Positions 11,637 to 15,780 of a stretch of 64,000 nucleotides of DNA are shown here, piece after piece. A model generated the notes under the pieces. That model made no database searches. It saw nothing but the letters and a program-made list of their open reading frames with translations, and was not told the DNA's origin. Numbering within the stretch: the first letter of the stretch is position 1; each line of letters begins with the position of its first letter. Location of the stretch: positions 3,082 to 67,081 of the forward strand of contig JAAYMV010000014.1 in NCBI GenBank assembly GCA_012521185.1, read 5' to 3'. The DNA comes from Bacillota bacterium (GTDB lineage Bacteria; Bacillota; Limnochordia; Darwinibacteriales; DTU012). Made by a program: the position numbers and the translations under genes.

Positions 11637-12980
11637 GTGTTGATTAATTTATATGGATATTCACCCCGTTTTTGTAGATTAAGGATGGTGTCGCTTGTGA
11701 GGGAGATAGCATATTGGCCAAATCGTGATGAGTTATATACATATTTAGACGGAATCATTAATCGTGCCAATTCTGAGATGTGGAAAATCGCTTTATTAGT
11801 CATGGACTTAGATGATTTCCGTGAGTTTTGTGAAATTTATGGGTATCAAGCTATTGATAATTTTTTAAATTTAATTGGACAAGTCATTAAAGAAAATTGT
11901 CCAGACAATAGTTGGTTGGCTTGGTTAGGTTCAGATGAGTTTGCTGTAGTATTATATGATACTGATCAGGAGCAAGCAACAAATGTTGCTCAAACCATCT
12001 GTGAAGCAGTTGCCCAACCAATTTCTTTTAAGGGGCGGATTGCTCAAGTGGGAGTAAGCCTAGGTATCAGTTTATTCCCGGTAGATGCAGTTGATCGCTA
12101 TGAGCTTTTGAAAAATGCTACTGTAGCTATGAATTGGGTGAAAAAGAACGGAAAAAATAGTTATCGATTTTATGATCGGAAAATGAGTGAGGAAATAAAC
12201 CGCAAAGTTAGGTTAACTAATGATTTTAGTGTGGCTTTGGTAGAAAATCAGTTTATTCTTTATTATCAGCCGCAGATAAATATATTCACTGGTATGATTA
12301 GTGGTGCTGAAGCTCTCGTTAGGTGGCAACATCCTGAACTGGGCTTAATTCCGCCTGGAGATTTTATTCCATTGGCTGAAGAAAATGGTTTTATTCATCA
12401 ATTGGGCGAATGGGTTTTACGGAAAGCTTGCCAAGATTTTTACAGTTGGTTGGAAGCAGGTTTACCTTTAGAACGACTAGCGGTAAATGTTTCTGTCATT
12501 CAGTTGTTAGAGTCAAATTTTGCACCCATGGTTTTTTCAATATTAGAGGAAACAGGACTAGACCCTGTATATTTAGAATTAGAAATAACGGAGAGTCAAA
12601 CTGCTAATTTACAAACTGTTAAATCTCAGATTGAGTTATTACGTGAGCATGGAGTTCGCTTTGCGATTGATGATTTTGGTACAGGTTTTTCATCAATCCA
12701 TCATTTGCGTGTGATGGGATTTGATACGATTAAAATTGATAAAGGTTTTATACATAATGTTTTACACGACAATAAGGATCAGGTGATCGTTGAGTCCATT
12801 TTAAATATGGCTCATTTACTGCGTTTAAATATTATCGCTGAAGGGGTAGAGACCTCGGAACAAGCAAGATATGTGGAAACCGTCAAAATAGAAGAAGTTC
12901 AAGGTTATTATTATAGTCCGCCAATTGATAAGGATAGATTTGAAAACATGATGAAAGAACTCTTTTTGACAAGTGAATAA
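11637..12980 (+). CDS. c-di-GMP phosphodiesterase: degenerate GGDEF (GSDEF) plus intact EAL domain
   Basis: GSDEF replaces GGDEF (LGSDEFAVVL). EAL motifs are intact (EALVRW, DDFGTG, EGVE). The true start is uncertain: TTG at 11637, or ATG/GTG at 11685-11697. There is no N-terminal sensor domain. Confidence 0.8.
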   Translation: MLINLYGYSPRFCRLRMVSLVREIAYWPNRDELYTYLDGIINRANSEMWKIALLVMDLDDFREFCEIYGYQAIDNFLNLIGQVIKENCPDNSWLAWLGSDEFAVVLYDTDQEQATNVAQTICEAVAQPISFKGRIAQVGVSLGISLFPVDAVDRYELLKNATVAMNWVKKNGKNSYRFYDRKMSEEINRKVRLTNDFSVALVENQFILYYQPQINIFTGMISGAEALVRWQHPELGLIPPGDFIPLAEENGFIHQLGEWVLRKACQDFYSWLEAGLPLERLAVNVSVIQLLESNFAPMVFSILEETGLDPVYLELEITESQTANLQTVKSQIELLREHGVRFAIDDFGTGFSSIHHLRVMGFDTIKIDKGFIHNVLHDNKDQVIVESILNMAHLLRLNIIAEGVETSEQARYVETVKIEEVQGYYYSPPIDKDRFENMMKELFLTSE

Positions 12981-13014
12981 TAAATCAGTGTCATAAAGAA
13001 AGGAGATATACTAA

Positions 13015-15780
13015 ATGACACAAATTTTAGGTAAAGTCTCCCTATTTTCTTTAGTATTACTGTTATTATTGGTTAGTGTAGGTTGGGCTAATGACCAACA
13101 GGTTTCCCAAGCAGACCTGGAACAGCTTTTTAAGCAATTGGAATCAGAGCATTTTGGAACTTCTTTACTGGCACAAAATGAACTAGTGGCTTTAGGAGAC
13201 CAGAGTGTTCCTGGTTTGGAGAACATCTTAAGCAGATCATACAATCAATGGAATCGAGTGAAGGCTGTAAATGTTTTAGGTCGGATTGGTTCGGAAGATT
13301 CCATTAAAGTCTTATTAACTGCTATTAGGGATCGGGAACAAATTGTGCGAGACACAATGGTTTCAGCAGTGGAAAAGTTGGATCAGCAAGGCAAGGAATA
13401 TGCAAAATCTGGATTGATCGAATTTGCTGTAGACAGTGATTTTACAGTACGGAAGACAGCCCTAGACCTTTTAAGACGTATTGGTGTAGATGATATTGAA
13501 ATAGCTAAAGGACTACTGGAGCAAGCTCATAAAAATAAAGGTTTTGGCAAGGAAAAGATTGCCTTAAATGAGATTAAACTATTAGGAATCAAAGCAGAAA
13601 TATTAGTTCCGAACCTATTAACCTTCTATAATGAAGTTGCTGATGAACAGAAGTTTTTTTTATTGGAAGTAATCACTAGTGTTGCTAAGCCTGATACAGC
13701 TAGGGTTAAGGATATACTTTTTGCACTATTATTTTCACCGGACTGGGAGACCCGTCAAGAAGCAATTTGGGGGATGCGCCGACTAGGATTAACCGGTACA
13801 GAAATGATTACTCCAGTTTTAGAATTGATTGAGCGCGGTACTATTAGTGAACAAGAATTTGCTGTAGACCTATTGGGGCAATTAGCCATTACACAGCCAG
13901 ATGCGGTTTATGCTTTATTTGATTTGGTAGAAAACGAAGGTTATCCAAATTCATTACGTGTAATTGCTTATCAAGCTCTAAAAGGTTTAACTTCTCAGTT
14001 AGAGTGGCATTTAGAACGTGGATTAGTAGCTGTTCCGACTGAAGAGGGCATCTTTTTAAGTTGGCGTTTGTTAGGTACAGAACCAGCTGATCTTGGTTTT
14101 AATGTTTATCGGGACGGACAATTAGTTAATCCACCACCAATCGTTTCTAGCACAAATTATCTGGACACGGAAGGCACTTTAGATTCTAGGTATTATGTAA
14201 GACCGGTGCTTAATCAAACTGAATTAGAACCATCAGAGACTGTTGCTGTTTGGCAACAAGAATATTTGGCAATTCCACTGCAAGTTCCTGAGGGAGGAGT
14301 AACTCCTGTTGGAGAGCGTTACAATTATCAGGCTAATGATGGCAGTGTAGCAGATTTAGATGGTGATGGTCGTTATGAAATCGTTTTAAAATGGGAGCCA
14401 TCAAATGCAAAAGATAATGCTCATGGTGGATATACAGGCAATGTATATATTGATGCTTATAAATTTGATGGTACTTTTATGTGGCGGATCGATTTAGGAC
14501 CTAATATCCGTGCTGGGGCTCATTATACGCAGTTTATGGTTTATGACTTAGATGGTGACGGTCAGGCAGAAATAGTTATGAAAACTGCAGATGGAACTAT
14601 TGATGGTGAAGGCAATGTTATTGGTGACCCTAATGCAGATTATCGTAATAACAATGGTTATGTTTTATCTGGACCAGAATACCTTACAGTTTTTCACGGT
14701 TTAACTGGAAAAGCACTAGCAACCATTGATTATGATCCACCACGGGGAAATGTAGCCGCTTGGGGTGATAGCTATGGTAATCGAGTTGATCGGTTTTTAG
14801 CTGGTATTGCTTATTTAGATGGAGTTAGGCCTAGTGTGATTATGGCGCGGGGATATTACACCCGTACAGTACTAGTTGCTTATAACTGGGAAGATAATCA
14901 ATTAAAGCAAGTATGGAAGTTTGATACTAATCAGCCAGGGATGGCTGCTTACATGGGTCAAGGTAACCATCAGTTATCTATTGCCGATGTGGACGCTGAT
15001 GGCAAAGATGATATCGTTTACGGATCAATGACTATTGGCAGTGATGGGAAACCTCTATATAACACTCGACTTGGTCATGGTGATGCCTTACATGTAGGTG
15101 ATTTTCATCCAGAACGGCCTGGACTAGAAGTTTACGCTGTCCATGAGTCTTATCCACATCAAGCTGGATATAATCTGCGTGATGCCCGCACTGGCGAGAT
15201 TCTTTGGGGTGTACCGACTAATTATGATGTTGGTCGGGGTGCAGCTGGTAAACTAGATCCTAATTATCCTGGTTATCAGTTTTGGGCTAGTCGCAGCAAA
15301 GTGATGACCATTGACGGCCAGGAAACTGATATCCATGTCCCAGCTATGAACTTTGTAATTTGGTGGGATAAGGATTTACAACGCGAACTTTTGGATGGTA
15401 CTACTATTACCAAATGGGATTGGGAAAATCAACGGATAGTAACTTTATTATCGCCAAGGGGTGTAGCATCTAACAATGGCTCTAAAGCTACTCCAGTTTT
15501 ACAAGCAGATCTCTTTGGTGATTGGCGTGAAGAAGTCGTTTGGCGTTCTTTAGATAATCGAGAATTAAGAATTTATACAACGACAGATTTAACGGAACAT
15601 CGTTTATATACTTTGATGCATGATCGGATGTATCGAGTGGCTATTGCTTGGCAAAATGTGGCTTATAATCAGCCCCCTCATCCTAGCTTTTATGTAGGTG
15701 AGGATATGAACCCGCAAACCTTTAATATTGGTTTGATCCACAATGTTGTGACTAAATATGCTCCAGAGTTAGATTTATAG
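13015..15780 (+). CDS. Secreted rhamnogalacturonan lyase (PL11, YesW-like) with N-terminal HEAT-like repeat module, paralogue 1
   Basis: Signal peptide, then ~300 aa of α-helical HEAT/PBS-lyase-like repeats. This is followed by a Fn3-like segment and an 8-bladed propeller catalytic domain with YesW-type motifs (NDGSVADLDGDGRYEIVLKW, YIDAYKFDGTFMWRIDLG, AGAHYTQFMVYDLDGDG, GNRVDRFLAGIAYLDG, LMHDRMYRVAIAWQNVAYNQPPHPSFY). Confidence 0.8.
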   Translation: MTQILGKVSLFSLVLLLLLVSVGWANDQQVSQADLEQLFKQLESEHFGTSLLAQNELVALGDQSVPGLENILSRSYNQWNRVKAVNVLGRIGSEDSIKVLLTAIRDREQIVRDTMVSAVEKLDQQGKEYAKSGLIEFAVDSDFTVRKTALDLLRRIGVDDIEIAKGLLEQAHKNKGFGKEKIALNEIKLLGIKAEILVPNLLTFYNEVADEQKFFLLEVITSVAKPDTARVKDILFALLFSPDWETRQEAIWGMRRLGLTGTEMITPVLELIERGTISEQEFAVDLLGQLAITQPDAVYALFDLVENEGYPNSLRVIAYQALKGLTSQLEWHLERGLVAVPTEEGIFLSWRLLGTEPADLGFNVYRDGQLVNPPPIVSSTNYLDTEGTLDSRYYVRPVLNQTELEPSETVAVWQQEYLAIPLQVPEGGVTPVGERYNYQANDGSVADLDGDGRYEIVLKWEPSNAKDNAHGGYTGNVYIDAYKFDGTFMWRIDLGPNIRAGAHYTQFMVYDLDGDGQAEIVMKTADGTIDGEGNVIGDPNADYRNNNGYVLSGPEYLTVFHGLTGKALATIDYDPPRGNVAAWGDSYGNRVDRFLAGIAYLDGVRPSVIMARGYYTRTVLVAYNWEDNQLKQVWKFDTNQPGMAAYMGQGNHQLSIADVDADGKDDIVYGSMTIGSDGKPLYNTRLGHGDALHVGDFHPERPGLEVYAVHESYPHQAGYNLRDARTGEILWGVPTNYDVGRGAAGKLDPNYPGYQFWASRSKVMTIDGQETDIHVPAMNFVIWWDKDLQRELLDGTTITKWDWENQRIVTLLSPRGVASNNGSKATPVLQADLFGDWREEVVWRSLDNRELRIYTTTDLTEHRLYTLMHDRMYRVAIAWQNVAYNQPPHPSFYVGEDMNPQTFNIGLIHNVVTKYAPELDL

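Follow-up and report, generated by a model that had tools for sequence, protein, structure and literature searches.

We analysed a 64,000-nucleotide stretch of DNA (the window) from a Bacillota bacterium (GenBank assembly GCA_012521185.1, contig JAAYMV010000014.1, positions 3,082 to 67,081 of the forward strand), in which a gene for a predicted cyclic di-GMP (c-di-GMP) phosphodiesterase (PDE) without a sensor domain lies immediately upstream of three genes for rhamnogalacturonan lyases. The reading that we favour, with evenly balanced confidence, is that the PDE is a transition-phase enzyme controlled at the level of transcription and that its transcription reads through into the lyase genes in this genome. 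This gene order is genuine and has been inherited in a single clade of uncultured Bacillota that is known from metagenomes, some of them from biogas reactors; it suggests, without proving, that starvation signalling, motility, and pectin foraging are connected.

Promoter of the PDE gene and its junction with the lyase genes

Twelve distinct lineages, the window included, were obtained by exact-protein look-ups and a metagenome scan; a scan of a genome collection with the PDE family, in which the relatives among the matches listed were at most 42% identical, was not used for synteny. The regions upstream of the PDE orthologues have a motif in common, AGGAWWW-N13/14-CGAAT, which in the window takes the form AGGGAAA-N14-CGAAT (11569..11594, plus strand; −35 box at 11569-11575, −10 box at 11590-11594). 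The sigma-H motif of Bacillus subtilis is AGGAATT-N14-CGAAT (PMC6849360), and in Bacillota this sigma factor serves the transition phase and affects motility genes as well (PMC4885068). A strict form of the pattern (AGGRWWW-N11-13-RNNGAAT) was present 33 to 116 nt before the PDE start in 10 of the 12 orthologous loci, against 0.065 regions expected from shuffled sequences (background rate, 0.016 per 300 nt), and the two other lineages carried near-matches that differ by one base. From the match to the B. subtilis consensus, we infer that the PDE promoter is sigma-H dependent.

The PDE gene ends with a TAA stop codon at 12978-12980 and is separated by 34 nt (12981..13014, plus strand) from the ATG of lyase 1 at 13015, which stands 9 nt behind a GGAG ribosome-binding site (13002-13005). 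An earlier note on this DNA had described the short gap, the ribosome-binding site ahead of the first lyase, and the lack of a terminator at the junction, and our analysis agrees on all of these: a terminator scan of the 34 nt returned none, and the only structure given by RNA folding was a weak AT-rich hairpin, which lacks a T-run (−11 kcal/mol over 70 nt; z-score of −1.2 over 131 nt). The PDE gene, lyase 1 (13015..15780), lyase 2 (15792..18557), and lyase 3 (18584..21268) all lie on the plus strand, spaced by 34, 11, and 26 nt. No good terminator occurs until the end of lyase 3, where an 11-bp hairpin that overlaps the stop codon is followed by a T-run (21260..21290, plus strand, −16.2 kcal/mol). 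The upstream boundary of the unit is a hairpin and T-run terminator on the minus strand (11200..11225), in the interval between purC and a small open reading frame (ORF). Since nothing stops the polymerase before the terminator behind lyase 3, the PDE and the three lyases are probably made as one transcript in this genome. Cotranscription, which the earlier note had thought plausible, is supported as plausible for this genome, but it is not conserved in the relatives described below.

Under the favoured reading, the sigma-H-type promoter would start transcription at the transition phase, and the polymerase would run through the PDE gene and the three lyase genes, which encode HEAT modules fused to PL11 lyases, as far as the terminator behind lyase 3. 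As growth slowed, c-di-GMP would fall while scavenging lyases were exported, and the lower c-di-GMP would favour motility over attachment, as low c-di-GMP generally does in Bacillota. Because the PDE has no input domain, its output would be set mainly by the amount made, and a growth-phase promoter is a coherent way of setting the activity of such a sensorless enzyme. The evidence fits a joint rise of PDE and lyases from a single promoter better than it fits control of the lyases by c-di-GMP.

Four further sigma-H-type matches were found in the window, three of them in the correct orientation 40 to 75 nt upstream of the starts of a redoxin gene, a PAS gene, and a GH43 gene. The match at 29195 (plus strand) ends ~35 to 40 nt before the redoxin gene start at 29256, and the one at 31923 (minus strand) precedes by ~25 nt a gene that encodes a PAS domain only (30538-31872, minus strand); these two suggest a small transition-phase regulon. 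A 21-nt element, AATAGTNGAATAACTARGGTG, occurs upstream of both the PDE gene (11584-11604) and the GH43 gene (43300-43320), with 19 of 21 bases common to the two copies and 2 matches found where 0.02 were expected. The sigma-H-like −10 box is overlapped by this element, which may be a sign that the two genes are coregulated. Apart from this element, no palindromes common to the pectin-related upstream regions were found. The cre-type pattern of catabolite control, TGWAANCGNTNWCA, gave 6 matches where 3.9 were expected, and the region upstream of the PDE gene contained none.

Conservation of the PDE-lyase neighbourhood

The common layout of the orthologous loci was purC, a small ORF (minus strand), galM (minus strand), the PDE gene, an optional kinase gene of the 1-phosphofructokinase family, lyases A, B, and C, a flagellin gene, and an aldo-keto reductase gene (minus strand). 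The small ORF beside purC in the window (11231-11413, minus strand, 60 aa) has no family match, and an ORF of 60 to 66 aa occupies this place in nearly all related loci. Identification of the interposed PfkB kinase as KdgK, the pectin-pathway kinase, was rejected, as NCBIfam places it in a 1-phosphofructokinase/hexose kinase subfamily.

The PDE-lyase neighbourhood was found in eight lineages of one uncultured clade. The lyases follow straight after the PDE gene in the window (34 nt) and in L099 (26 nt), with no hairpin in between; they come after a spacer of ~200 to 260 nt in L088, L093/L100, and L102; and in L092, L096, and L091 the PDE gene abuts or overlaps that of the kinase, and a further 36 to 142 nt separate this from the lyases. 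The four other lineages (L094, L085, L089, and L098) have an intact PDE gene and no lyases. The closest relative is L094, whose PDE is 73% identical and which shares its sample of origin with one copy of the window contig; behind its PDE gene lies a 62-aa remnant of a PL11 C terminus (L094:2548-2733), followed by a GerE-family regulator, small ORFs, and a peptidase-C39 ABC exporter in a bacteriocin-like cluster. In L085, the PDE gene carries its own terminator (a hairpin and T7) and is followed by the gene for MntP.

Lyases A, B, and C of each locus matched window lyase 1 at ~61%, 56%, and 52%, respectively, and since these three paralogues are orthologous across the loci, the triplication is older than the clade. 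When the PDEs were placed in a neighbour-joining tree (no bootstrap), the lyase-bearing lineages included the earliest branch, and the lyase-less ones stood at three or more separate places. Because lyase-bearing lineages span this tree down to its earliest branch, the adjacency of PDE and lyases is ancestral, with the lyases lost several times and the PDE kept each time.

The reverse test covered 80 metagenome PL11 loci, three of which encode a HEAT module (L100, L102, and L101). The PDE gene was upstream in L100 and L102, which are members of the clade described above, and L101 (HEAT-PL11, 51% identity) had no GGDEF-EAL gene. Among the 77 ordinary PL11 loci, none had a GGDEF-EAL gene in the fetched flanks, which extended at least 3 kb upstream in 53 of them (56 of all 80); the earlier note was thus right that this coupling is not a standard feature of such loci.

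The strongest alternative, which we hold to be possible rather than probable, is that the neighbourhood was inherited without functional coupling: the PDE would be a general transition-phase or motility enzyme with a variable slot downstream, and the lyases would have their own promoter in the 3′ end of the PDE gene. A series of findings weighs in this direction and against a functional unit of PDE and lyases. The coupling is clade specific and of single origin, being absent from the 77 ordinary loci and from L101. Synteny with the PDE gene is no weaker for purC, the small ORF, and galM than for the lyases, and when unrelated neighbours are equally syntenic, conserved adjacency alone is weak functional evidence. 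Since the PDE is intact in L094, L085, L089, and L098, where the lyases are absent or decayed, it is not dedicated to the lyases, and the slot behind it carries other cargo in these lineages (MntP, a riboswitch-controlled chemoreceptor with Crp, or flagellin). In L088, L093/L100, and L102, a strong hairpin (−20 to −24 kcal/mol) followed by a T-rich run opens the spacer between the PDE and the lyases (L093:6710-6760, L088:11340-11390, and L102:9480-9520), the run being a canonical UUUUUU in L102; ~100 nt of conserved sequence lie between this hairpin and the lyase ribosome-binding site, and hairpin and leader gave no Rfam family match. This spacer is probably a terminator followed by a lyase promoter, or else a regulated attenuator. 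Because of it, cotranscription is not conserved, and the PDE and the lyases were probably two transcription units ancestrally. In the window itself, a sigma-70-like match within the 3′ end of the PDE gene (12925..12952, plus strand; TTGATA-16-CATGAT, 9/12) is a candidate lyase promoter and may drive the lyases separately, and the L093 spacer holds a similar TTTACA-18-CATGAT. The favoured reading has further limits: the putative identity of the sigma factor at the PDE promoter stands on the motif match to the B. subtilis consensus, and no sigma factor gene was identified within the window. Rfam scans found no motility effector of c-di-GMP in the window, where protein effectors such as PilZ were not searched.

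The organisation of the genes is nevertheless operon-like in part of the clade: two separate lineages have terminator-free gaps of 26 to 34 nt, and in three more the PDE, kinase, and lyase genes form tight strings. The internal promoter match is weak, and sigma-70-like sites are no commoner in this region than chance (30 found against 37 expected from shuffles). Moreover, read-through from the PDE promoter would occur anyway. The favoured reading, in which the transition-phase promoter of the PDE also serves the lyases in this genome, is framed for the window and not for the whole clade.

Motility context and c-di-GMP effectors

The genes that accompany the PDE include several concerned with motility. 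A flagellin gene lies behind the lyases in L088, L093/L100, and L102 and directly behind the PDE gene in L098. The L098 flagellin gene is preceded by TAAA-N15-GCCGAAAT (L098:9180-9215), by eye a sigma-D-like flagellar promoter, and is probably transcribed on its own. In L089, the PDE gene is followed by a dCache_3/HAMP chemoreceptor gene and Crp, and a c-di-GMP-I riboswitch (RF01051, 73.8 bits; L089:11448-11537, plus strand) lies between the PDE and chemoreceptor genes, with a hairpin and T-run behind it in the manner of a terminator-like expression platform. Since this riboswitch adjoins an orthologous PDE, the clade uses a c-di-GMP-responsive RNA. The ties of the PDE's surroundings to motility are thus no weaker than those to pectin.

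The same riboswitch bears on a second alternative, which we consider distinctly improbable, namely that c-di-GMP controls the production or secretion of pectinolytic enzymes, as it does in Dickeya, and that a PDE beside its targets relieves this control locally. In Dickeya dadantii, c-di-GMP turnover enzymes and the effector VfmE govern pectate lyase production (PMC9045272, PMC10714721), and the class I riboswitch next to the L089 PDE is an instance of c-di-GMP-responsive RNA in the present clade. However, no riboswitch was found upstream of or between the lyases, either with Rfam across the whole window at the gathering threshold or in 11150-13200 at an E value of ≤1, and none was found before the lyases in four related loci at the same permissive threshold (E value ≤1). 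There is also no regulator gene within the cluster, and the Dickeya system is proteobacterial, works through unlinked genes, and concerns pectate lyases of the PL1 type. The earlier note had proposed second-messenger control of polysaccharide foraging versus attachment on the strength of the physical coupling; the adjacency is confirmed in eight lineages, but the absence of a riboswitch at the lyases and the retention of the PDE where lyases are missing weaken the proposal.

Domains and catalytic residues of the PDE

The longest ORF of the PDE gene is 11637..12980 (plus strand), and the earlier note had given 11637 as the start and 13100 as the end of the feature. Both limits need correction. 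Position 13100 lies 86 nt inside lyase 1, and the 16 additional residues gained from GTG 11637 are not conserved. Public gene calls start the protein at ATG 11685 (P0001, 431 aa, 100% identical), and the PDE of L094 starts at the equivalent of GTG 11697, after a ribosome-binding site of the AAGGTGGTG type that is also present in the window. On these grounds the true start is probably 11685 or 11697, GTG 11697 being at least as likely; we give the gene as 11685..12980 (plus strand), with GTG 11637 and GTG 11697 as alternative starts.

Pfam identified a GGDEF domain (E value of 3.4e-23, profile positions 10-160 at residues 28-174) and an EAL domain (PF00563; E value of 4.4e-70, 236.2 bits against a gathering cut-off of 31.3, profile positions 2-236 of 236) in the protein, and no other domain. 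With about 27 residues at most ahead of the GGDEF domain and no further Pfam domain, there is no space for a sensor domain. The GGDEF-like motif stands in the context WLGSDEFAV, and the EAL motifs GAEALVRW, NVS, ELEITES, DDFGTGFSS, KIDK, EGVET, and QGYY are all present, so the earlier description of the protein as a GSDEF domain joined to an intact EAL domain, with no sensor, was accurate. Over its full length the protein aligned to the GGDEF-EAL cores of three PDEs of solved structure, namely Pseudomonas aeruginosa MorA (4RNH; E value of 6e-81), PDB entry 5M3C (4e-78), and Escherichia coli DosP (5e-67). The entry 5M3C was deposited as a "diguanylate cyclase"; we take it to be PA0575/RmcA.

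For a residue-level comparison, we aligned 16 PDE orthologues (57 to 73% identity), six PAS-GGDEF-EAL outgroup proteins, the paralogue in the window, and MorA. The EAL positions checked were the E and R of EALxR, N, ExxE, the DD of DDFGTG, KxD, the ExxE of EGVE, and Q, and in the alignment to MorA 4RNH all 12 catalytic or metal-binding positions were invariant across the 16 orthologues. We infer that the protein is an active EAL-type c-di-GMP phosphodiesterase. It is very unlikely to be instead a receptor of c-di-GMP without catalytic activity, like LapD or FimX: a degenerate GGDEF domain is found in some dual-domain proteins that act as receptors, and the PDE has weak matches to LapD and FimX (1e-20), but its EAL catalytic residues are all intact and invariant, and its best matches are to MorA and DosP, which are named or deposited as PDEs, at E values of 1e-67 to 1e-81.

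The GGDEF-like domain, for whose residues we assume the roles known from PleD and WspR, carried a signature of fixed changes. Its motif was GSDEF in 15 of the 16 orthologues and GADEF in the other. In all 16, the guanine-binding Asn was replaced by Cys, the Arg two residues before the motif was replaced by Trp, and the RxxD inhibitory site was missing; a Lys of the domain had become Arg in 15 and His in 1. All six outgroup proteins and the paralogue in the window retain the Asn, and all but one of them retain the Arg. Since the disabling changes are fixed in every orthologue, the domain is almost certainly cyclase-dead and under purifying selection, which bears out the expectation that the cyclase is inactive. 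The companion suggestion that the domain might sense GTP is doubtful: DxD keeps its second Asp, and the DEF residues and two Lys are also retained, yet the guanine-binding Asn and the Arg are lost in all 16 proteins, and the second base contact is D, E, or G. The model for a regulatory GGDEF-like domain is Caulobacter PdeA (CC3396), in which a GEDEF domain precedes EAL and GTP activates the enzyme (PMC13571940). Because the guanine-contacting Asn is replaced in every orthologue, GTP binding like that of PdeA is not to be assumed here. We propose that the dead domain has been retained for a structural or regulatory role.

The nearest outgroup of the sensorless PDE is the PAS-GGDEF-EAL family, which includes the second gene of this kind in the window (43% identity), and these relationships suggest that the PDE probably arose from a PAS-GGDEF-EAL gene through loss of the PAS domain.

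Lyases, second GGDEF-EAL gene, and surroundings

Each of the three lyases has a signal peptide, a HEAT_2 domain, and a PL11 rhamnogalacturonan lyase region. Their RGI_lyase and RGL11_C domains were matched at E values of 1e-249 to 1e-260 (RGL11_C of lyase 1, 1.1e-249), which ruled out pectate lyases as their identity, and the catalytic region is 60 to 65% identical to annotated rhamnogalacturonan lyases of Bacillus and Paenibacillus. The HEAT modules extend over ~300 aa behind the signal peptide (13015-14000, 15792-16780, and 18584-19470). Only about 40 protein clusters, from uncultured Bacillota, carry the HEAT-PL11 fusion, the few named ones being labelled "Firmicutes/Bacillota bacterium."

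The rest of the window contains genes for an Mrp antiporter, a redoxin, rubrerythrin, araA/B/D-type enzymes, GH43, GH77, and a pectinesterase. It is an ordinary chromosome with scattered sugar genes and no dedicated pectin locus, and the pectin-locus setting assumed in the earlier note is not supported. GC content was even across 8 to 24 kb (0.34 to 0.43), giving no sign of recent horizontal transfer of the lyase block. A 646-aa FG-GAP protein (45543-47483), encoded next to a DUF6530 gene, gave a partial RGL11_C-like match (E value of 1e-12) and is possibly related to the lyases as a divergent beta-propeller protein.

The second GGDEF-EAL gene (56890..58593, minus strand) encodes a PAS domain, a canonical GGDEF, and EAL, with GH77 next on the same strand; its best named relative is in "Ca. 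Wallacebacter cryptica" (49% identity). It was described earlier as divergent from a pectinesterase with a HEAT module. The domain order and the divergent arrangement with the pectinesterase gene (58796-60619) are correct, but Pfam found no HEAT repeats in the pectinesterase N terminus, and the resemblance of that region (58796-59710) to the HEAT module of the lyases was marginal (22% over 187 aa, E value of 0.002). Moreover, at L180, which carries a 52%-identical PAS-GGDEF-EAL orthologue, GH77 is again near and the upstream neighbour is a membrane transporter, with no pectinesterase. Since the pairing is not conserved at L180, it is best treated as incidental.

Implications

If one transition-phase promoter makes both the PDE and the lyases, a second-messenger output would be set by gene position and not by a sensor, and polysaccharide scavenging would be linked to the motile-sessile switch in degraders of plant biomass. 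A more ambitious version, which we put forward tentatively and think unlikely as a whole, is a module by which the cells starve, let go, swim, and digest, with a sigma-H-type promoter, the PDE and lyases on one transcript, and a fall in c-di-GMP tied to lyase export. Were this module true, the slot behind the PDE, with its lyases, flagellin, or riboswitch-controlled chemoreceptor, would form a small c-di-GMP and motility island. The conserved promoter and the 34-nt junction provide a testable handle in organisms that are known from metagenomes only.

Comparison with known systems

The PDE has the GGDEF-EAL core and all the EAL catalytic motifs in common with MorA, 5M3C, and DosP. These proteins differ from it in having PAS, haem, or membrane sensors of their own (judged in part from NCBIfam profile coordinates), whereas the PDE has no input domain, and MorA retains a canonical GGDEF where the PDE has GSDEF together with the Asn-to-Cys and Arg-to-Trp replacements. 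Caulobacter PdeA, compared here by its description, resembles the PDE in placing a degenerate cyclase domain ahead of an active EAL domain (PDE activity being predicted in our case) and differs in the guanine-contacting Asn, which is replaced in every orthologue of the PDE. SesB of Thermosynechococcus and B2043 of Cupriavidus necator are GSDEF/EAL proteins that are reported to have PDE activity and no cyclase activity and to repress biofilm formation (PMC13571940). Both have the degenerate GSDEF motif of the PDE; SesB is regulated by light and hence has an input signal, unlike the sensorless PDE, and B2043 adjoins a chemoreceptor gene, whereas the PDE of the window adjoins lyases.

Among the lyases, the YesW/YesX-type PL11 enzymes of Bacillus and Paenibacillus have the RGI_lyase and RGL11_C domains in common with those of the window, which differ by an additional N-terminal HEAT module of ~300 aa and by the PDE neighbour that ordinary PL11 loci lack. 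Our literature search found no paper that ties c-di-GMP to rhamnogalacturonan lyases or describes a PDE-lyase operon. Dickeya resembles the present case in that c-di-GMP turnover is linked to pectinolytic enzymes, functionally there and by gene neighbourhood here, and differs in that the link is mediated by transcription factors in a proteobacterial pathogen and concerns pectate lyases, whereas the enzymes of the window are PL11. To our knowledge, the turnover and pectate lyase genes of Dickeya are not adjacent. The enzyme itself is thus an ordinary one of a familiar class, and Dickeya already provides an established functional connection of c-di-GMP with pectinases; what gives the enzyme a modestly interesting context is its conserved neighbourhood with the lyases, together with the sigma-H-type promoter.

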